Shown here: positions 7,030 through 16,412 of the stretch, one piece after another | How the letters are laid out: every line of letters starts with the position of its first letter | Position numbering within the stretch: position 1 is the first letter of the stretch | Assembly (NCBI GenBank): GCA_017634595.1 | Contig: JAGBNC010000009.1 | Location: forward strand, 5,559 to 69,558 | Length of the DNA: 64,000 nucleotides | Source of the DNA: Bacteroidales bacterium | GTDB taxonomy: Bacteria > Bacteroidota > Bacteroidia > Bacteroidales > UBA932 | Direction: 5' to 3' | Notes under the pieces: generated by a model | What the model saw: the letters and a program-made list of their open reading frames with translations, nothing else | What the model was told of the DNA's origin: nothing | The model's database searches: none | Made by a program: the position numbers and the translations under genes

Positions 7030-8634
7030 TTAACGAGTCTTGAAGTTGAAACGGATATCAGCGGGGATATTCTCCAGACCAAGATTCAGCACATCGGCAT
7101 CGTAGTCGGAGCCTCTCTTTGAATACTTCTTCTCGAATTCAAGAGCGAATGCTTTGTCTGCGGTAGCCTGAGTCTTGAGCACTATGGCAGAGATGTCGGT
7201 CAATGCCGATACCATCTTGTCATAATCCAGGACATACTTACCGGAAGCTTGCCTGTAGAAGGCGCCCTTCTCTTTCAAATAATTGAAAATAATAATGTTG
7301 GCTCTTCCAAGGGCGGAGCCTTCGCCAAAGCGCTCCGAGCGCACCAGAGAGGCGAAGAAAGTGGTAAGGGCATCCTGCTTGGTGAAGATATGATGGATAT
7401 CATAGTGGTCTTGGAGCTTGCATACAAGCAGCATTCCCACAGCGTTAGCCTTGATTTCCTCGAAGGTAAGTGCTGCGCTTCCCAAAGACCTCTGCGCATC
7501 GTTACCATCGGCAGTCTCCTTGACTCCAAGTCCGTGGGCCACTTCGCGGAAAACAATATTCCAGAAGAATGCCTCGGCGGAAAGATGCTCTGACGTTTCA
7601 GAATCAAGCATAAGCTCACCGGTAGGACCAACGATGCTGTTGTACTTGGCACGGATCACATTCTCCAGCAGAATTGTCCTGGTGCCTTTGTCACGCTGCA
7701 CGTCACTGTCAAAAGGCAGGTTGAGGGCAATAACCTTGATGCCTGCATTGGCCTTGCCGGCGTAGTACAGGGCATCATAAGAATAGATGTTGGAGCCGAG
7801 GCCGGGCTTGAAAGTCCTGTATGAAGGGTCGCCGGGCAGTTCTTCCTGGAACTCGCTGATGCGGGAAACGTACTGCATCAGTTCGTTTGTCTTGCTTTCG
7901 TTCTTGAGCAGAACGTATGCTTCATAGGAACGTTTGAGTCCGAGCAACTGGTCATCGGTTGTCTCGTTGGGACCGATAACAAGATCCATCTTGCTGTCGG
8001 TCATGTCGAGCCAGTCGATACCGCTCTGGTAGTAATTGTCTGTCTTGAGAGCCTGTGCCTTGCTGAGCAGGTATTTCTTTACGCTGGGCTTGATGGTAAT
8101 GTCAGCAGCCGCGTTCAGATAAGAAACGATTTTGTCGATATGCTCTTTATAGACATCGTGATACCATTCGGTATGCAAGGAACCGTCCTCAGCCCTGCGG
8201 ATTAGGGTGTAGGGGCTGTATTTGTCAGGATCATCGAGGGCTTCGAACTCTTCCACCGTCATGTCGGCGGGGTAGAACCCTGCCCCTGAAAGCCTGTCAT
8301 TGTACCCTTGTACGAATGACTTTCCGTCGGCACGGTCCCAAGGGCCGTAGTTAATCTCGGCGAAAGTCCTCTGAGCCGGATCGGAGATGCCGTCAAGCAG
8401 GGCCTTTTTATCGCCGAAGTACTGCTCCCAATACATGGCATCCACCTCATCGGCTGCGAAACGGTACAGATTAAGCACTTCTTTTCCGTTGTCGGAAATG
8501 CCGCTCAAGTCGGGAGCCTCTACGGTGACCACCGTGTAATTATGAACTTTCCTATTGAAAGGAGATTTGGGCTCTTCTTTGCAAGAAACGACTGTCGCAA
8601 GAATCAGAAGCCCGAAAAACAAATGCTTTTTCAT
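7030..8634 (-). CDS. Peptidase M49 (DPP III)-like lipoprotein with degenerate Zn motif
   Basis: Lipobox VVS-C; INYGPWDR, GFYP and AGIKVIALNLPFD family motifs; FREVAHGLG replaces FHEVAHGLG; EEIKA retained. Confidence 0.85.
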   Translation of the reverse strand: MKKHLFFGLLILATVVSCKEEPKSPFNRKVHNYTVVTVEAPDLSGISDNGKEVLNLYRFAADEVDAMYWEQYFGDKKALLDGISDPAQRTFAEINYGPWDRADGKSFVQGYNDRLSGAGFYPADMTVEEFEALDDPDKYSPYTLIRRAEDGSLHTEWYHDVYKEHIDKIVSYLNAAADITIKPSVKKYLLSKAQALKTDNYYQSGIDWLDMTDSKMDLVIGPNETTDDQLLGLKRSYEAYVLLKNESKTNELMQYVSRISEFQEELPGDPSYRTFKPGLGSNIYSYDALYYAGKANAGIKVIALNLPFDSDVQRDKGTRTILLENVIRAKYNSIVGPTGELMLDSETSEHLSAEAFFWNIVFREVAHGLGVKETADGNDAQRSLGSAALTFEEIKANAVGMLLVCKLQDHYDIHHIFTKQDALTTFFASLVRSERFGEGSALGRANIIIFNYLKEKGAFYRQASGKYVLDYDKMVSALTDISAIVLKTQATADKAFALEFEKKYSKRGSDYDADVLNLGLENIPADIRFNFKTR

Positions 8635-8638
8635 ATTG

Positions 8639-10324
8639 TTATAACATTATCATTATCATCAACTGGGCCGCTACAACACGCAGGAACATGGTAAGCGGAT
8701 AAACGGTTGCATAATTGACGGCAATTCTGCCGTTGCCGTACATTTGCTCCGAGAATGAAAGGAGTGCCGGATCGGTGGTGCCGCCGGCCAGGAGACCGCA
8801 GATCTTGAAGAAATCAAGCTTCATGACGTAGCGTGCTATCAATGACACCAGCATCATTGGCACAAGAGTGATTATAACTCCGTACAGGACCCACATGTAA
8901 CCACCTCCTACAAGGCTCTCAACGAAGTGCTCGCCGGCACCGACTCCGACAGCCGCCATAAACAACGAGATGCCGATTTCACGTATCATCAAGTTGGCGC
9001 TCAGAGCGGTGTAGGTGGTAATCCTGAGCTTGGGACCGAAGTGGCCGAGCAGAATAGCAACAATAAGGGGACCTCCAGCTAGTCCAAGCTTCAAGGGCTG
9101 GGGCATGGAAGGGAAGCGGATAGGAATCATTCCTACCAGCACGCCCAGTGCGATGCCGAAGAAAATCGGCACCAAATTAGGCTTCTGAAGGGTCTCAGGC
9201 TGGTTGCCGACGAGTTGAGAAAGCCTGTTGATGCCTTGCTCGGAACCTACTACCTGAATACTGTCTCCCACTTTGAGAATTAAATCAGGGTCTGCCTGCA
9301 GATCAATACCGGAACGAAGGATTCGTGTCACGGTGACACCATACTTCTGACGTATATTGAGCTTGCGGAGGTTCTTGCCGGTGATGGAAGATTGAGTGAT
9401 GGAGAGTCTGCGCGACATGAGTTTTGCGCCCGGCTGCTCCCATTCATTCATATCAACAGGATAGTCTTCGCCGAAGATTATACGGGCCTTTTCCTTATGC
9501 TGTATATCTGTGACAATAAGCAGCTTATCTCCCTCCAAAAGGGGCTGCTTCAAATCGGGCATAGATACCACACCTTTCCTCATCAGGCGCGTAACCACCA
9601 AGTGGTCGGCGTTTTCTTCGCCCACAATGTCGAATAAGCTTTTCCCGAATATTGCCGGGTTGGCCACGATGCAGGCAAGCCTGAAAGCACTCGCTTCTTC
9701 ATCTTCGCCTTGAGAGGCCATGTCTTTCTCCTTGGGCAAGTTGACTCTGAATATGGCTTTGCTCAGGAGTATGACGCCTATGGCTCCCAGCACGCCAAGA
9801 GGATAGGCCACTGCATAAGCAGACGCTATGCCCGCAGATGCATTTGCAGCTTGTGCTGCGCTGCCTCCGGAGGCAAGCGTGGCATCTACCATAGTCTGCT
9901 GGGCTGCACCAAGCCCGGGAGTGTTAGTAACAGCTCCGGACATGATACCTGTCATGATGTCAAGTCTCTCACCTGTAATGAGATGAATGGCATATGTGAC
10001 AAGCACTGCGGCCAGTACCAATCCAATGGCAAGCATGTTCATGGGCAAGCCGTCTTTGCGGAAAGAGTGGAAGAAACCGGGACCGACTTGCAAGCCAATG
10101 GCGAAAACGAACAAAATGAGTCCGAAGTCTTTGATAAAAGAGAGCATTACGGGGTCTATCTTCATGCCTAAATGCCCCAGTAAAATGCCCATAAACAGAA
10201 TCCAAGTTGTTCCGAGGGAGATCCCTTTAAACTTGAATCTGCCGAGGTAAAGTCCAAGGGCAATGACCAGCGCCATGATCAATATTGCTCCGGCTGTGCC
10301 CCCTTGAGTTAGCAAATTTTTCAT
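8639..10324 (-). CDS. AspT/YidE/YbjL-family transporter with TrkA-C domains
   Basis: FVFAIGLQVGPGFF, SGAVTNTPGLGAA, LGLAGGPLIVAILLG, YATVYPLTMFLR; two soluble RCK_C-like repeats. Confidence 0.92.
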   Translation of the reverse strand: MKNLLTQGGTAGAILIMALVIALGLYLGRFKFKGISLGTTWILFMGILLGHLGMKIDPVMLSFIKDFGLILFVFAIGLQVGPGFFHSFRKDGLPMNMLAIGLVLAAVLVTYAIHLITGERLDIMTGIMSGAVTNTPGLGAAQQTMVDATLASGGSAAQAANASAGIASAYAVAYPLGVLGAIGVILLSKAIFRVNLPKEKDMASQGEDEEASAFRLACIVANPAIFGKSLFDIVGEENADHLVVTRLMRKGVVSMPDLKQPLLEGDKLLIVTDIQHKEKARIIFGEDYPVDMNEWEQPGAKLMSRRLSITQSSITGKNLRKLNIRQKYGVTVTRILRSGIDLQADPDLILKVGDSIQVVGSEQGINRLSQLVGNQPETLQKPNLVPIFFGIALGVLVGMIPIRFPSMPQPLKLGLAGGPLIVAILLGHFGPKLRITTYTALSANLMIREIGISLFMAAVGVGAGEHFVESLVGGGYMWVLYGVIITLVPMMLVSLIARYVMKLDFFKICGLLAGGTTDPALLSFSEQMYGNGRIAVNYATVYPLTMFLRVVAAQLMIMIML

Positions 10325-10332
10325 ATCGGCCG

Positions 10333-10340
10333 CAAAGATA
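10333..10340 (-). promoter_or_regulatory. Bacteroidetes -7 promoter element
   Basis: TATCTTTG on the minus strand just upstream of the 10324 start. Confidence 0.55.
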
Positions 10341-10390
10341 CAGATTTTGTTGTATATTTAGCTTGTCTCGATAAGAAATAAAAAGAATCT

Positions 10391-11164
10391 TTATGGACAA
10401 GAACCTTTCATCTTTTTACGGAACGCTGATGGGGTCAGACCTGTCTCTTTCTTGAACAGGCGGGCAAAGTAGGATTGATCCTCTATGCCTACTTCTAGTG
10501 CTATATCGATAATTGGCTGTGTTGTCGTGGCGAGCAGTTTCTTCGAACGCTGAATCCGGACAATGTCAATCCAAGCACCAACGCTGCGTCCGGTGTTTTT
10601 CTTGACAAGCCGGCTGAGGTAATTCTCACTGATCCAGATTTCATCAGCATAGCATGCAATGGTGCCCGGCAATCTGGACGGCTCGAACAGATATTCGAGG
10701 AAGCGCGTTACGGCCGGATGTGTTGAGGCGCGGTGCTCAACTTTTATCCGTGACAGAAGCAGGTCAAGAGCCTTCTCAATGAAGACGCGGTCACCCTTCT
10801 CATATGAAGATGCCAGCATCTCAAACAGCAGGCCCATAAAAGCCCCTTCTTCAAACCAAAAGCCTTGATGAATGGGCGCAGTGAGATACTGGAGCGGTCT
10901 TGTGTCCAACAGAACAGAAGGGGAGAATCCTCCCGTGTATCCCACTGCATCCCGGTAGAAGCTGATGGCGAAGGGTGTCTGCTGCGGTATCAGCAGAAGC
11001 TGCCCGGATTGGCACAGATACGGAGATCCGTCTATATCTGCGAGCACTTCACCAGAGTTAACGTAGATGAAGCCGATAAGCGCCAACTGAGCAGCTGGAA
11101 TTGCGGATGTTTTAGTATATCCGGAAGTGTCCATCCTTCTTATGAAGAACGCAGGGGCTGCCAT
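10391..11164 (-). CDS. AraC-family transcriptional regulator
   Basis: C-terminal double HTH (ENYLSRLVKK...DQSYFARLFKKETGLTPSAFR). Confidence 0.92.
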   Translation of the reverse strand: MAAPAFFIRRMDTSGYTKTSAIPAAQLALIGFIYVNSGEVLADIDGSPYLCQSGQLLLIPQQTPFAISFYRDAVGYTGGFSPSVLLDTRPLQYLTAPIHQGFWFEEGAFMGLLFEMLASSYEKGDRVFIEKALDLLLSRIKVEHRASTHPAVTRFLEYLFEPSRLPGTIACYADEIWISENYLSRLVKKNTGRSVGAWIDIVRIQRSKKLLATTTQPIIDIALEVGIEDQSYFARLFKKETGLTPSAFRKKMKGSCP

Positions 11165-11476
11165 TTAGCTCTCGATTACTTCCAGATAAAAACTCACCGG
11201 ACGAAAACCATCATTGCACGAAATCATTGCGCTCATAGGGTTTTTCATCCATCCGTCGAAAAAGTTGCCTTCACCTTTTGCCAACGACTCAACAAACGTC
11301 CGCATCGACTCCCATGCCGATTCGCACATCCCGAGTGGGCGTTGCCCATCTTCTGAAATCCAACTCTGGCCTATAAGCACATTGCACGTGTGCAAGATTG
11401 GATTCTCATATTTTGCCATAAGGTCCGGATACTCTGTCTTCCGGACAGCCGTAATCTTGACCTTGTTCATCGCCAT
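11165..11476 (-). CDS. TIGR04076-family protein
   Basis: KVKITAVRK...C...PLGMCESAW...CNDGFRPVSFYLE pattern. Confidence 0.8.
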   Translation of the reverse strand: MAMNKVKITAVRKTEYPDLMAKYENPILHTCNVLIGQSWISEDGQRPLGMCESAWESMRTFVESLAKGEGNFFDGWMKNPMSAMISCNDGFRPVSFYLEVIES

Positions 11477-12981
11477 TACACAATATGTAAAGAACCTGCA
11501 GCGAAGAGTACGAGATAACCCAGCACAACGCTGATGGCACCGATAATGACACCCATCTTTATCATGTCCTTCTGCTGTATAAGGTTCGTGGCATAGGCGA
11601 GTGCATTAGGAGGTGTGGATATGGGCAGAATCATAGCGCTGGAGGAGGCTATGGCGACACCAATCAGCACGGTGGATGTCCCGCCGACGGCAGCGAGTTT
11701 GTCTCCCATGGCCATACATACTACCACCAGAATCGGCATGAGCAGGGCTGCTGTGGCGGAGTGGGAAATCAAGTTGGAAAGCCCGTAGCACAGCAATCCG
11801 GACAGAATGACGATCAGAAGAGGGGAGAAGTTGCCGAACGGGATGGCACGGACCACCAGAGCCGCCAGACCGGAACCGTTCATGGCATAACCCATGGCGA
11901 ATCCGCCGGCCACCATCCAGATGACTGACCAGTTGATCTCTTCCAAATCGTATTTGGTGATGATACCGGCCAGCGCAAAGACTGCAAACGGGATAAGGGC
12001 CACCGTGTAAGTGTTGATGCCTGTTACGGTATCCATCATCCAGAGGAGGATGGTGACAATCATGGTGACAATCACAAGGACTGTTTCCTTGCCACGCTTC
12101 ATCTCGCCGTCGATCTTCAGCTCTATGGTCTTCTGTGAGAAGGGGAACAATGTCTTGAGCAAGAACCAGGCAATCAGGATCATGACGATCACCAGAGGCA
12201 CCATGAACAGCATCCACTGACCAAAGCCGATACCAAGATTCAGACCTTCCGGGTCGTTAAGATACTTCAAGGCGATTGTGTTCGGGGGAGTGCCGATGGG
12301 CGTTCCCATTCCGCCGAGATTGGCTGCAATAGGTATGCTGAGAGCCATGGCCGTACGGCCTTTTCCGGCTTCCGGAAGCTGCTTGAAAACAGGCGTGAGG
12401 AAAGTAAGCATCATGGCCGTGGTCGCAGTGTTGCTGATGAACATGGAGAAAAGGGCGGTCACCAGCATGAAGCCCAGCAGTATGTTCTCGCTCTTTTTGC
12501 CGAACGGGGTCAGCAGCACACGGGCGAGATGTACATCAAGTCCGGTTTTGGTGGTAGCGATTGCAAGTACGAAACCACCTATGAAGAGCATCACCACAGG
12601 GTCGGCGAAACTGGCCATAACCTGCTTGTAGCTAAGGAGCTGCCCGGCAGAAGTGGGGTCGCAGATCCATTTGATTCCGGAATCGGAGGTGCAGAGCAGG
12701 AGGAAGACCATGATAGACACGGATGTCGCCCAGGCCGGAACCAGTTCAAACACCCACATCAATGTGGCGTACACGAATATGGCTATTATTCTTTGCTGTA
12801 TCTGGGTAAGCCCGTCAATGCCGAACGACTCGGTGGGCAGGAACCACAGTGCTATTACAATGGCGGCGACAAAAATGAGGCCGAAACTCTTCTTCTTCAG
12901 TACCGAAAGATTCAATCGGTTGCTCTGACGCAATTTATGCATCTGCTCAACCAGATTGAAACCAGTGAAATTCTTGAACAT
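11476..12981 (-). CDS. SLC13/DASS-family permease
   Basis: SMFISNTATTAMML, GTPIGTPPN and PISTPPNALA motifs; many TM helices. Confidence 0.92.
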   Translation of the reverse strand: MFKNFTGFNLVEQMHKLRQSNRLNLSVLKKKSFGLIFVAAIVIALWFLPTESFGIDGLTQIQQRIIAIFVYATLMWVFELVPAWATSVSIMVFLLLCTSDSGIKWICDPTSAGQLLSYKQVMASFADPVVMLFIGGFVLAIATTKTGLDVHLARVLLTPFGKKSENILLGFMLVTALFSMFISNTATTAMMLTFLTPVFKQLPEAGKGRTAMALSIPIAANLGGMGTPIGTPPNTIALKYLNDPEGLNLGIGFGQWMLFMVPLVIVMILIAWFLLKTLFPFSQKTIELKIDGEMKRGKETVLVIVTMIVTILLWMMDTVTGINTYTVALIPFAVFALAGIITKYDLEEINWSVIWMVAGGFAMGYAMNGSGLAALVVRAIPFGNFSPLLIVILSGLLCYGLSNLISHSATAALLMPILVVVCMAMGDKLAAVGGTSTVLIGVAIASSSAMILPISTPPNALAYATNLIQQKDMIKMGVIIGAISVVLGYLVLFAAGSLHIV

Positions 12982-13007
12982 GTTATCGTTATAATTGCTT
13001 TGAAAGA

Positions 13008-14606
13008 TTATTCATAGGTAAAGCGGATGTCAACAGGTATGCTGGCATTCTCCAGGACCCTCTTGTCGGAGAGGCTCTCAGGCCCGGCAAATCCATATTT
13101 GGATATCCAAGCACGGGCGCCCTCGACATCTCCATGGGCCTGCATATCGAGTATCTTGGAGCCGAGGGTCTCCAGGGCCTGCCAAGTCTTGTCGTAGTCA
13201 ATGCTGTATCGGCCTGAAGGGTTCCATATAATAGCCTTGCTTTCCAGCAGGTAGTTATAGACAACGATATTGGCAATGCCGGTAGGATCAGCCGCACCGA
13301 AGCGGGTGGACCTTATGGTGTTGGTGACGAAAGTGGTGAGCACATCCTCCTTCTGGAAAAGGGCGGATATGTGGTACGCTTCAGCTTCCTGAGCGCACAA
13401 CCAGGCTCCCAGTACATTGGATTTGGCTTTCTCCAGTACCAGTGCTTCGTCAGCCAATGCTTCGGCCACGGTGCCCTTGCCGTTGACGGTCTCTTTTACG
13501 CCCAAACCTTTCGCAATCTCACGGAATACGATAGTCCAGTAGAAGGCACTGGCATCAACGTGGGGTTGGAAAACTTCCTCCAGCAGAGCATTCCCCACCG
13601 GATGAACCGTGCGGTTGAACTTTTCGCGGATGATATTGTCGAAGATGATGGTGCGGGTGCCAAGTTTCTCCTGTACCTCTGTATCATAAGGGAAGTTGAT
13701 GCCGATTACTTTGAATCCTGCATTGGTATAGCCACTGCAATACAGCACGTTGCAAGAGAAGATATCGGACTCGGCACCAGGGACAAAATCATGGTTGGCC
13801 GGATCTCCCGGAAGCATTTTCTGCAGCTCCGGCATGCGGGCCGACAGTGCATTGAGCTCTTCGGTACGCTGCAGGTTCTTCAGAAGGACATAGGCGCCGT
13901 AGGATGCTTTGGTTCCGTTGATGGCATCATCCACAGCTTCGATAGGGCCGATCACAAGATCCATCTTGCTGTCGTTCATCTCCAGCCATGCTTTGTAACT
14001 GTTATAATAGTCGTCCGTCTTGAGGCCTTCAATCATTTGGAGAAGATAGTGGCGCACACTCTCCTTGATGGTGACATCGGCGGCTCTTGTAAGATACTCT
14101 TCAATTTTGCCTATATGCTCAGCGTAAGCTTCATGATACCAGACGGTTTTCAGTTTGCCGTCTTCAGTACGCCGGACAAGTGTATAAGGGCTGTTCTTGA
14201 GGGGATTGTCCCATAAACGGAATTCCTCCGAAGTCATGTCGGCAGGATAGAAGCAGGCACCTGCCGGTTTGTTGCCATAGCCCGGAAGAAATGGTTTCCC
14301 GTCTATACGGTCCCAGGGGCCGTAATTGATTTCTGCATAGAGTATTTCGGATGGATCTTCAAGAGCCCCCAGGAAGGCATCCCCGTCACCGAAATACTGC
14401 TGCCAGTATATTTTGTCAACTTCGTCGGCGGCCTTCCGGTAAAGCCGCAAGACTTCTTTTCCATTGTCTGTTATGCCCGTCAAGTCCGGAGCCGGAATGG
14501 TCACTTGGGCATAGTTTTTCACGAGTCTGCCCACATCGGCTCTTTCCTGTGCGCAGGATACTGCGCATAAGCCGGCGAGTAGAAGTAAAACAGTATTTAT
14601 TCTCAT
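13008..14606 (-). CDS. Second M49-like lipoprotein, Zn motif fully lost
   Basis: Paralog of 7030..8634 (EINYGPWDR, MDLVIGP); FREIAKGLG and LEKAKSN replace both His and the distal Glu ligand; lipobox AVS-C. Confidence 0.85.
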   Translation of the reverse strand: MRINTVLLLLAGLCAVSCAQERADVGRLVKNYAQVTIPAPDLTGITDNGKEVLRLYRKAADEVDKIYWQQYFGDGDAFLGALEDPSEILYAEINYGPWDRIDGKPFLPGYGNKPAGACFYPADMTSEEFRLWDNPLKNSPYTLVRRTEDGKLKTVWYHEAYAEHIGKIEEYLTRAADVTIKESVRHYLLQMIEGLKTDDYYNSYKAWLEMNDSKMDLVIGPIEAVDDAINGTKASYGAYVLLKNLQRTEELNALSARMPELQKMLPGDPANHDFVPGAESDIFSCNVLYCSGYTNAGFKVIGINFPYDTEVQEKLGTRTIIFDNIIREKFNRTVHPVGNALLEEVFQPHVDASAFYWTIVFREIAKGLGVKETVNGKGTVAEALADEALVLEKAKSNVLGAWLCAQEAEAYHISALFQKEDVLTTFVTNTIRSTRFGAADPTGIANIVVYNYLLESKAIIWNPSGRYSIDYDKTWQALETLGSKILDMQAHGDVEGARAWISKYGFAGPESLSDKRVLENASIPVDIRFTYE

Positions 14607-14729: not shown

Positions 14730-16412
14730 ATGGATTTAACAGCAATCATTACCTCTTTGCTTACGCTCCTTGCAGGAATCGGTGTTTTCCTGATTGCGTG
14801 CCAGATGATGAGCTCGAACCTGGAAGCAGCGAGCTCGGAAAAACTGAAAGTACTCTTTTCCAAAGCTTCCAATAGTAAGTTGATGGGAGTCGGAATCGGC
14901 GCTCTGGGGACAGCCGCTATCCAGAGTTCCGGTGCCACCACGGTCATGACCATCGGCTTTGTCAATGCCGGCATCATTTCCCTCTCGCAGGCGGCCACCA
15001 TCATCTATGGCGCCAACATCGGTACAACTGTTACGGCCCAGATCGTTGCCCTGGGTATGTTTGGCGGCAATTCCGTATCGACAAGCGTCATTTTCTCGGC
15101 CTTCGCCGGGCTCGGTGCTTTCCTGAGCATCTTTGCCAAGAAGAGCGGGCCAAAGACGCTGGGCGGTATTCTTGCGGGATTCGGTATGCTGTTCGTGGGT
15201 CTGGAACTCATGAGCGGTTCCATGGAGACATTTGCGGCGCTTGACGGTGTCAAGACCTTCCTTGCCGGGATTGGCAATCCTGTACTGCTGGTGCTGCTGG
15301 GTGCAGTTTTCACAGCCATTATTCAGAGTTCATCCGTCATGACTTCCATTGCGCTTGCCATGGTGGTGACCGGACTCATAGGGATAGATCAGGGTATCTA
15401 CCTGACCATGGGCTCCAATATCGGATCCTGCGTGGTCGCTGTCATAGCCGGAGTCACTAGCGGGACGAATGCGAAGCGTACCGCGCTCATCCACTTGCTT
15501 TTCAACTGCACCGGCGTTGTCATTTTCATGCTGGCTGCTATGGTCCTGAGCTGGTTTGACATCTCCTACGGGAGTCTGTTTGAAAGGCTGTTCCCCTCGG
15601 CGCCACAGGTTCAGCTGGCCATGTTCCATACTTTCTTCAATACGGCAACAGTGGGAATTATGCTTCCCCTGACAGGTGCACTGGTCGGGCTGGTGTCGAG
15701 GATGATTCCCGAACGCACAGTGCCGAAGGACGCAGAATTCAGCCTCCGATATGTCGATGACAATATGCTTCGTACCCCTCCGGTGGCTGTCTCGCAGGTT
15801 AAACGCGAGATTCTGCGTATGGCCGATATCGCCCTTGAGAACGTGGACCGCGCCTTGAACATGGCTGTTCAGCTTGATTTCTCCTTTAAGAGCCAGTTTG
15901 AGAGTGATGAGCGGCAGCTGAACTTTATCAACCGGGAGCTTGTGGGCTTTGTCGTAAGATTGAGCGGCAGGAGCGGTCTGGGAGAGAAGGACAGAACGTA
16001 CCTCTCCGGAACATTTCGCAATATCCGGGATTTAGAGCGAGTCGGCGATTATGCAGAAAACATCGTTGAATATGCTACCGTACTTGCCGATACCTCGCAG
16101 CAGTTCTCCGACGATGCCAAGTATGAAATCAGTCAGATGAAGAAGCTCCTTCACGAGCTATATGACTATACGATTGACGCTTATCAGAATGAGAGTTTAG
16201 CTTCCCTCGACAAGGCTAATGCTATTGAGGAGGAAATTGACGACTACACAAGAAGAATGGAAGAGGGACATATCACACGTATGGAGAAAGGAATCTGTAC
16301 TCCATCTGTGGGGGCGCAGTACCTGGAGCTTTCTTCCAATGCTGAGCGTATTGCCGACCACCTGATCAATATGGCAAAATCTATCAAATCGCTTAAAGTC
16401 AATTTATTATAA
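14730..16412 (+). CDS. Na/Pi cotransporter with PhoU-like C-terminal domains
   Basis: Two QSS motifs (AAIQSSGATT, AIIQSSS), GANIGTT and GSNIGS, then DLERVGDYAENI and NAERIADH. Confidence 0.93.
   Translation: MDLTAIITSLLTLLAGIGVFLIACQMMSSNLEAASSEKLKVLFSKASNSKLMGVGIGALGTAAIQSSGATTVMTIGFVNAGIISLSQAATIIYGANIGTTVTAQIVALGMFGGNSVSTSVIFSAFAGLGAFLSIFAKKSGPKTLGGILAGFGMLFVGLELMSGSMETFAALDGVKTFLAGIGNPVLLVLLGAVFTAIIQSSSVMTSIALAMVVTGLIGIDQGIYLTMGSNIGSCVVAVIAGVTSGTNAKRTALIHLLFNCTGVVIFMLAAMVLSWFDISYGSLFERLFPSAPQVQLAMFHTFFNTATVGIMLPLTGALVGLVSRMIPERTVPKDAEFSLRYVDDNMLRTPPVAVSQVKREILRMADIALENVDRALNMAVQLDFSFKSQFESDERQLNFINRELVGFVVRLSGRSGLGEKDRTYLSGTFRNIRDLERVGDYAENIVEYATVLADTSQQFSDDAKYEISQMKKLLHELYDYTIDAYQNESLASLDKANAIEEEIDDYTRRMEEGHITRMEKGICTPSVGAQYLELSSNAERIADHLINMAKSIKSLKVNLL

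Follow-up and report, generated by a model that had tools for sequence, protein, structure and literature searches.

The locus described here raises the question of what two lipoproteins of a peptidase family are doing, on either side of two anion transporter genes, when one or more zinc ligands of that family have been replaced in each. The window, which is the whole stretch of 64,000 nucleotides (nt) analysed from a Bacteroidales bacterium (GenBank assembly GCA_017634595.1, contig JAGBNC010000009.1, positions 5,559 to 69,558), contains the genes P1 and P2, whose products are related to dipeptidyl peptidase III (DPP III), the zinc-dependent enzyme of peptidase family M49. Between them lie the genes of a DASS (SLC13-type) anion symporter and of a YidE-type transporter of the AspT/YidE/YbjL (AAEx) family. 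The source genome is a 2.6-Mb assembly resembling a metagenome-assembled genome, and its relatives are uncultured rumen Bacteroidales.

Family membership and loss of the zinc ligands

P1 and P2 belong to the short, secreted "pentapeptide" branch (HExxH) of peptidase family M49. They are 50% identical to each other over their full length, and their matches to the Pfam model PF03571 (Peptidase_M49) are weak, yet above the cutoff. The closest solved structures are the DPP III enzymes of Caldithrix abyssi (6eom, E 4.5e-71) and Corallococcus (5zum, E 1.8e-59). AlphaFold (AF2) models have predicted local distance difference test (pLDDT) values of 85 for P1 and 86.7 for P2 and a predicted template modelling score (pTM) of 0.86, and Foldseek aligns the P1 model with 6eom at a template modelling (TM) score of 0.88 and with the second structure match at 0.84. 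Both N-termini, read by pattern, have a signal peptide and a lipobox Cys (..ATVVSC; ..CAVSC), and Cys18 is invariant in an alignment of 53 P1/P2 homologues.

The departure from the family is in the zinc site. In the C. abyssi enzyme (Ca numbering hereafter) the ligands are H379 and H383, in the motif HEISH, and E412, in EECKAD (PMC5805324). P1 R363 aligns on H379, and R362, K366 and K393 of P2 align on all three ligands. The first motif is thus REVAH in P1 and REIAK in P2, at positions where 103/103 intact relatives, or nearly that number, have both His ligands; in the second motif P1 (EEIKAN) retains the Glu ligand and P2 (EKAKSN) is without it. The original prediction, made from the window sequence alone, had read these features correctly, namely FREVAHGLG...EEIKAN in P1, FREIAKGLG...EKAKSN in P2, different Arg codons (CGC in P1, CGT in P2), full lengths of about 530 residues and lipoboxes; its reference form, FHEVAHGLG with a distal EExKA, is carried as FHEVAHGLG...EEAKAD by intact relatives of the genus and the order.

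We note that the same genome also encodes, on another contig (721-2703, minus strand), a canonical DPP III of 660 residues with HECLGH...EEARAD and a lipoprotein signal (..LVAGC). In most descriptions DPP III of Bacteroides is cytosolic, unlike this lipoprotein.

Conservation and selection

The substitutions are shared by all close homologues. R-E-x-x-H is present in 120/120 of the best P1 database homologues (71-97% identical), and the few that were missed by a regular expression were inspected by eye and also read REVAH. The best 120 P2 homologues (81-100% identical) have RE(I/V/L)AK...EKAKSN with three exceptions, the first motif being kept in 118 of 120 and EKAKSN in 117 of 119. Sequencing error or recent mutation is thereby ruled out as the source of the substitutions, and intact HExxH is not found in the orthologues of close relatives, because these homologues keep the Arg motifs. 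Decay into pseudogenes is likewise ruled out, by the median pairwise ratios of non-synonymous to synonymous substitution (dN/dS; 0.126 for P1 and 0.109 for P2) together with synonymous codon turnover at the Arg: among 84 P1 orthologues from genomes, Arg363 is encoded by CGC, CGT, CGG, CGA and AGG. Selection rather than decay, which had been argued from the two window genes, is therefore upheld by orthologues that keep RExxH and RExxK/EK.

With the catalytic residues gone and the genes intact, conserved and under purifying selection (240 full-length homologues), the P1/P2 lineage is, as judged from its sequences, a selected pseudo-peptidase, neither error nor decay, and P1 and P2 are very probably not DPP III peptidases. 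Single in-frame stops occur in the homologues of three relatives (G244:C4:239392-240996, TAA; G238:C18:35073-36626, TGA; G083:C3:271786-273375, TAA), reflecting occasional decay or assembly errors.

Remodelling of the active site

Residues of the active site were compared between 103 intact sequences and 120 P1, 127 P2 and 15 other sequences with Arg at the first ligand position (Arg-type), with residue roles taken from PMC5805324 and PMC9820243. Tyr242, conserved in the intact relatives, is Ala or Thr in the P1 group and Val, Ala or Leu in the P2 group (Thr and Val, respectively, in the window proteins). Asn324, one of three residues gripping the substrate N-terminus (PMC5805324), is conserved in the intact relatives and is Phe or Tyr in the Arg clade. 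His460 of region 5, conserved in 91% of intact relatives, is Leu or Thr in the Arg clade (Leu in window P1, Thr in P2); the matching residue of the Corallococcus enzyme, H465, is reported to act with Zn in stabilising the scissile carbonyl (PMC9820243). At S1, Asp310 is Asp or Glu in intact relatives, Lys (K294) in 119/120 P1 and Tyr in 127/127 P2 sequences. Glu326 and Asp416 are both conserved in the intact relatives, and in the Arg clade the former is Ser, Ala or Thr and the latter Asn; P2 has in addition Gly for Glu254. We take Tyr242 to be the equivalent of human Y318, and His460, by its EAH motif, to occupy the position of human His568.

Part of the old site persists, with Glu240, Asn321, the general-base Glu380 and Glu411 retained in P1 and P2. 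No shifted or compensating HExxH was found elsewhere in either protein; the sole newly conserved His near the motif is His350, present in 119/120 P1 and 127/127 P2 sequences and variable in intact relatives, and it is without partners in P2. Because four catalytic elements have been lost jointly and their replacements are near-invariant within each orthogroup, the comparison suggests that the old cleft carries a new, selected function and is not that of a peptidase with one odd ligand.

Linkage to anion transporter genes

Flanking genes were gathered for each homologue found in 60 relatives, a set that partly overlaps the 80 P1 loci taken from GTDB species. About 80% of the Arg-type genes are adjacent to DASS or YidE genes. 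Among the relatives, 18/21 Arg-type loci abut such a gene, 17 of them on the same strand with gaps of 7-116 nt and one divergently at 124 nt; both window genes (2/2) also abut or cluster with these genes, as do 65/80 of the loci of P1 orthologues and, in a family-wide sample, 6/8 additional Arg-type loci. DASS or YidE neighbours were found at 0/20 intact-motif loci and at 0/12 further ones (0/32 overall). A Fisher test on the counts gives p ~1e-18; with one origin for the whole Arg clade, this value is descriptive only. More weight falls on the survival of the pairing through many rearrangements and on its occurrence with two transporter families. The gene orders among the 65 clustered P1 loci are YidE-P1 (with a gap of ~8 nt), P1-DASS, DASS-P1, P2-DASS-P1 and P2-DASS-YidE-P1; P2 lies nearly always ~30 nt ahead of its DASS gene, and the P2-linked DASS orthologue (>=87% identical, i.e. 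at least that) is confined to genomes with P2. Synteny with the transporters had been proposed as a check on the basis of this single locus, and its recurrence across species, with the natural fusions described below, makes the link stronger than the window alone could reveal.

An obligatory P1-P2 heterodimer was considered and is unlikely, most genomes having only one of the two beside a transporter. The original prediction had treated P1 and P2 as a pair; both are indeed present here, but the pairing is not obligatory.

Natural fusions to DASS transporters

In one congener a continuous open frame of 1000 codons encompasses both a DASS gene and an Arg-type gene. Its product consists of a DASS part (Pfam Na_sulph_symp/CitMHS, residues ~21-476), the junction ...FPFKSKQVENNSSEYAVVTL... 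and a DPP III-like domain with REVAH...EEIKAN. A missed stop codon can be dismissed as the cause, because the frame lacks the signal peptide, the lipobox and ~10 residues from the start of the mature protein. A junction-scored database search yielded 14 clusters at 90% identity (983-1004 residues, 232 member sequences) in which the whole junction is covered at 56-92% identity. Arg379 and Glu380 are present in every one of these, Tyr242 and His460 in none, and position 412 is Lys in most. Long homologues with intact motifs are instead fused to M28 or M29 peptidase domains, and no YidE fusions were found among 201 genomes of the genus. In P0247 (897 residues) and P0348 (947 residues), intact short-M49 domains are joined to M28 and M29 aminopeptidase domains in a peptidase-peptidase fusion.

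The fusions also bear on where the domain acts. In the DASS transporter VcINDY the C-terminal end of transmembrane helix 10b is at the cytoplasmic surface, the last residues are on the extracellular surface, and transmembrane helix 11 is part of the transport (elevator) domain (PMC7553777). The fused domain would therefore be periplasmic and tethered to the moving domain, and such a location agrees with the secreted, lipid-anchored state of P1 and P2. Very probably the Arg-type proteins act with the transporters at the periplasmic face.

Origin of the Arg clade

Genomes from other families of the Bacteroidales have one homologue each, an intact FHEVAHGLG...EExKAD lipoprotein with 35-41% identity to P1. 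Some species of the window's own genus carry intact HEVAH...EEAKAD copies directly beside tpiA, a conserved housekeeping neighbourhood from which the Arg-type genes have departed. The distance from the intact copies to tpiA (triosephosphate isomerase) is mostly 9-103 nt (L050, L055, L163-L170), and 667 nt in L165. In a maximum-likelihood tree all Arg-type sequences (23 rows) fall in one clade with a Shimodaira-Hasegawa-like approximate likelihood ratio test (SH-aLRT) support of 100, nested within the intact copies of the genus, and its sister is one HEVAH gene. Within the clade there are subclades of the types RxxxH/E (P1), RxxxH/D and RxxxH/R, and a monophyletic RxxxK/K group (P2, support 99). 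No sampled genome contains both intact and Arg-type copies, and a 70%-identical P1 orthologue is present in one other genus of the family. According to this tree the Arg clade arose once, inside one rumen Bacteroidales genus, from an intact HEVAH...EEAKAD gene beside tpiA.

The founding change was that of a Zn-ligand His to Arg, and with it the catalytic Tyr, the region-5 His and one Asn were lost and the S1/S2 acidic residues replaced. P2 was eroded further, its second His and its Glu ligand both becoming Lys. The Arg-type genes relocated beside DASS or YidE genes, and in one sublineage the domain became fused to the DASS C-terminus.

Proposed role and alternatives

We propose that the P1/P2 clade gave up the role of a Zn dipeptidyl-peptidase and became an accessory periplasmic partner of DASS and AspT/YidE anion transporters, probably a ligand-binding one, and judge the chances of this proposal to be evenly balanced. 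The two-lobed, hinge-closing DPP III fold would sit over the outward face of the transporter, and an anionic substrate would be captured in the former active-site cleft, with Arg/Lys in place of Zn2+, and then handed to the transporter, in a mode that would mirror the P subunit in TRAP transporters. Human DPP III is two-lobed and closes over its ligand. The bacterial enzymes are likewise two-lobed and close over a ligand (C. abyssi, PMC5805324; Corallococcus, PMC9820243), and the TRAP membrane domain has VcINDY as its closest structural homologue, with the TRAP binding protein bridging stator and elevator (PMC9352664). Substrate binding or delivery as the specific role, which is argued by analogy, falls a little short of an even expectation. 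The most likely ligand would be a C4-dicarboxylate or an acidic amino acid; C4-dicarboxylates and aspartate are favoured because both transporter families share them. Both are among the known substrates of the DASS and the AAEx families. More tentatively, DASS and AspT/YidE carriers served by a dead DPP III binding module may form another class of secondary transporters that depend on a binding protein, the third beside TRAP and TTT and one of independent evolutionary origin, with Arg/Lys holding the anionic cargo. As in such transporters, an extracytoplasmic partner is encoded with or fused to an elevator-type carrier; its fold is that of DPP III and not a known solute-binding-protein fold (DctP, TAXI, TctC). 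A literature search on M49 pseudo-peptidases or binding-protein-dependent DASS transporters found nothing relevant.

Several observations weigh against this proposal. The ligand is a guess, and another small anion is also possible. The linkage traces to one evolutionary origin, so that the adjacency counts are not independent events. Species with only the intact peptidase have DASS paralogues (52-60% identical) without a partner, and the partner can be accessory only, because these related paralogues in sister species work without it. Every DASS paralogue of the genus, with or without a partner, has SNT at the first hairpin and SNF, SNL or ANF at the second (SNT and SNL in the window DASS), and no partner-specific change in these substrate motifs was found between linked and unlinked paralogues, i.e. 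no co-adaptation there. In VcINDY an SNT second hairpin binds carboxylates; a dicarboxylate substrate is uncertain here because the second hairpin is SNL/SNF and the best PDB match is the phosphate carrier PHO90. The general-base Glu380 is invariant across the R-type groups, including P2 and the fusions, pointing to possible residual or new chemistry, and P1 may bind metal weakly, since two of its three Zn ligands survive and His350 has become conserved in it. Lastly, the P1 lipobox Cys begins the stretch CKEE, which resembles a Bacteroidetes surface-export signal, and the free lipoproteins may be anchored at the inner membrane, the outer membrane or the cell surface.

These points lend themselves to other explanations. 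P1 and P2 could still be enzymes, in which the surviving Glu (E364 in P1) is the general base and Arg/Lys takes over from Zn2+ as the electrophilic or oxyanion-stabilising group, or in which P1 binds a metal via H367, E393 and H350; they would release an anion in the periplasm for the neighbouring transporter, a metabolic channelling like that of a periplasmic asparaginase beside a C4-dicarboxylate carrier. The invariance of Glu380 is as expected for this, and the residue is also kept in 34/38 other degenerate representatives; Glu240 and Asn321, which hold the substrate amino terminus, are retained in P1 and P2, His350 is newly conserved in both, and there is a precedent for non-peptidase catalysis by the DPP III fold, the Fe2+/pterin enzyme PolE being among the fold matches. 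We nevertheless regard continued catalysis as unlikely, since four separate catalytic elements, one Zn ligand, Tyr242, His460 and Asn324, are gone together, no metal-ligand pair is constant across the clade (H, K or Q at position 383; E, D, K, R or T at position 412), and Glu240 is variable in the fusion proteins (V, D, R, A, S, T). The domain might instead be a structural or regulatory appendage that does not bind the transported substrate, e.g. a periplasmic lid, a dimer stabiliser, or a sensor gating transport or relaying a signal to the AraC regulator. Pairing and fusion show physical association and are silent on ligand binding, the cleft residues differ among P1, P2 and the fusion proteins, and transporter paralogues function without the partner in sister species, all of which such an appendage would accommodate. 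It is made improbable by the concentration of changes in the old substrate and metal site, where they are near-invariant per orthogroup (K294 in P1, Tyr in P2) as expected of a specific ligand site, and by the pairing of the same protein type with two transporter families, which a shared substrate class explains more easily than a shared docking surface.

The original prediction was of a pseudo-peptidase family repurposed as surface proteins that bind peptide or carboxylate, taken here as lipoproteins of the outer membrane acting as a P1/P2 pair. A selected pseudo-peptidase lineage is what we find, but the surface location is not supported, the fused domain being on the periplasmic C-terminus of an inner-membrane DASS. 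Lipoboxes are present in both proteins, P1 and P2 bracket one operon, and the Lys-Glu-Glu after the P1 Cys resembles what we take to be the Bacteroidetes lipoprotein export signal. Set against this, there is no SusC/TonB-dependent partner, the partners being inner-membrane carriers, P1 occurs without P2 in most genomes, and in the fusions the domain is positioned at the periplasmic side of the inner membrane (PMC7553777); this version thus seems very remote.

Relationship to other proteins and the wider M49 family

P1 and P2 share with the DPP III enzymes of Caldithrix (6eom) and Corallococcus (5zum) the family, the fold, a length of ~530-570 residues, a signal peptide, two lobes with a cleft and the GLG after the motif helix; the E-E-x-K-A second motif is intact in P1. 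They differ in the Arg at the first ligand, in the Lys at two more ligands in P2, and in the changes at Tyr242, Asn324, His460 and the S1/S2 acids; moreover, P1/P2-type genes are paired or fused with transporters, whereas DPP III genes stand alone or are fused to those of other peptidases. The likeness to the TRAP P subunits (DctP/SiaP, TAXI) and to TctC of TTT systems is one of function and not of descent: in each, a two-lobed extracytoplasmic hinge protein is found beside or fused to an elevator-type secondary carrier. Those binding proteins have a class II periplasmic binding fold, whereas the module here is an ex-peptidase in which binding is proposed, and the DASS/AAEx carriers at these loci are ordinary ones, not known to need a binding protein, unlike those of TRAP and TTT.

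Non-peptidase homologues of metallopeptidases include the transferrin receptor (M28 fold) and the mitochondrial core proteins (M16 fold). As in P1 and P2, a protease fold was kept under selection after metal-ligand loss, and, as proposed for P1 and P2, the cleft was reused for binding, although in other families; the literature searched yielded no example from M49. PolE (9j2e and related entries), with a TM score of ~0.63 to the target, has a DPP III-like fold in a non-peptidase role and differs in its size (~370 residues), its retained metal site, its cytoplasmic location, its biosynthetic function and its low identity (~12%).

For a wider survey of the short family, 128 full-length sequences were aligned, each representing a cluster at 50% identity. 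The ligands are H/H/E in 86/128, and ~40 (about 30%) are without one or more of them (RExxH, RExxR, YExxD/E, WExxN and others); nearly all of the ligand-deficient clusters keep the Glu after the first position (e.g. P0248, P0253, P0259, P0273, P0265, P0288, P0374). Ligand loss in the short M49 proteins seems to have happened many times. A spot check of five other ligand-deficient clades (P0273, P0248, P0275, P0288, P0374) found no DASS or YidE neighbours, P0374 being located in a gamma-glutamyltranspeptidase/amino-acid-permease cluster; ligand loss is thus recurrent in short M49 and the transporter partnership is specific to the Arg clade. A distant member with RELAR...EEARAD (L178 5001-6740; L179 1996-3735) also lies in a conserved cluster, which consists of a divergent M48 peptidase gene, the RELAR gene and genes for gamma-glutamyltranspeptidase, a small protein and an amino-acid permease.

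Family M49 is defined by its zinc motif, and a large conserved clade that lacks the motif yet is maintained is a clear case of a pseudo-peptidase. The phenomenon is broad, and the ligand-deficient short M49 proteins are currently annotated "Zn-dependent hydrolase". To our knowledge, DASS and YidE/YbjL/AspT transporters are regarded as functioning by themselves, and their pairing and fusion with a two-lobed periplasmic domain provides a concrete hypothesis of an accessory component. The natural fusions of ~1000 residues are ready-made objects for cryo-electron microscopy and transport work, and the system may give initial functional access to YidE-type transporters and to the uptake of anions or acidic nutrients in abundant uncultured rumen Bacteroidales.

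Organization of the locus

The six genes are all on the minus strand, in the order P2, DASS, TIGR04076, AraC, YidE, P1, with intergenic gaps of 26, 0, 0, 66 and 4 nt; coordinates are given in Table 1. That P1 and P2 bracket same-strand AspT/YidE and SLC13 genes had been seen before, without mention of the AraC and TIGR04076 genes that also lie between them. The YidE-type protein scores 604.6 bits with NF003007 (cutoff 449), with AspT as a PDB match, and the PDB matches of the DASS protein are PHO90 (best), NaCT and VcINDY. The TIGR04076 gene is an insertion particular to this genome's version of the cluster, being a cluster neighbour (within 2 kb of P1/P2) in 3/80 orthologous loci, and the AraC gene is usually missing between the two transporter genes in the loci of relatives.

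Table 1. Coordinates of the six-gene cluster, its altered zinc-site motifs and flanking signals in the window.
Feature	Coordinates	Strand	Basis
Candidate Bacteroidetes -7 promoter box TATCTTTG (TAnnTTTG), 19 nt ahead of the P2 start codon	14626-14633	-	Read from sequence
P2, M49/DPP III-like lipoprotein, 532 amino acids, R362/K366/K393 at all three Zn-ligand positions	13008-14606	-	Open reading frame, Pfam, homologue comparison
P2 first motif REIAKGLG (for HExxHGLG), R362-E-I-A-K366	13500-13523	-	Sequence
P2 second motif EKAKSN (for EExKAD), from E392	13416-13433	-	Sequence
DASS (SLC13-type) anion symporter, 501 amino acids, start 26 nt past P2	11476-12981	-	Pfam Na_sulph_symp/CitMHS, TIGR00785
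TIGR04076 family small protein	11165-11476	-	NCBIfam
AraC-family regulator	10391-11164	-	Pfam, NCBIfam
YidE-type transporter, AspT/YidE/YbjL (AAEx) family, TrkA_C domains, end 4 nt before P1	8639-10324	-	NF003007, Pfam Asp-Al_Ex
P1, M49/DPP III-like lipoprotein, 534 amino acids, Arg363 for first Zn-ligand His; catalytic Tyr and region-5 His lost	7030-8634	-	Open reading frame, alignments
P1 first motif REVAHGLG, R363-E-V-A-H367	7525-7548	-	Sequence
P1 second motif EEIKAN, from E392; Glu ligand retained, terminal Asp replaced by Asn	7444-7461	-	Sequence
Strong intrinsic-terminator-like hairpin, 17-bp stem, directly past P1	6978-7016	-	Sequence

The consensus behind the candidate -7 box is that of Bacteroides promoters, and the hairpin past P1 is likely to be the end of the six-gene unit. 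Divergent from P2, and perhaps sharing a regulatory region with the anion-transport operon, is a Na/Pi-cotransporter-like gene with a PhoU-like C-terminal part (14730-16412, plus strand).

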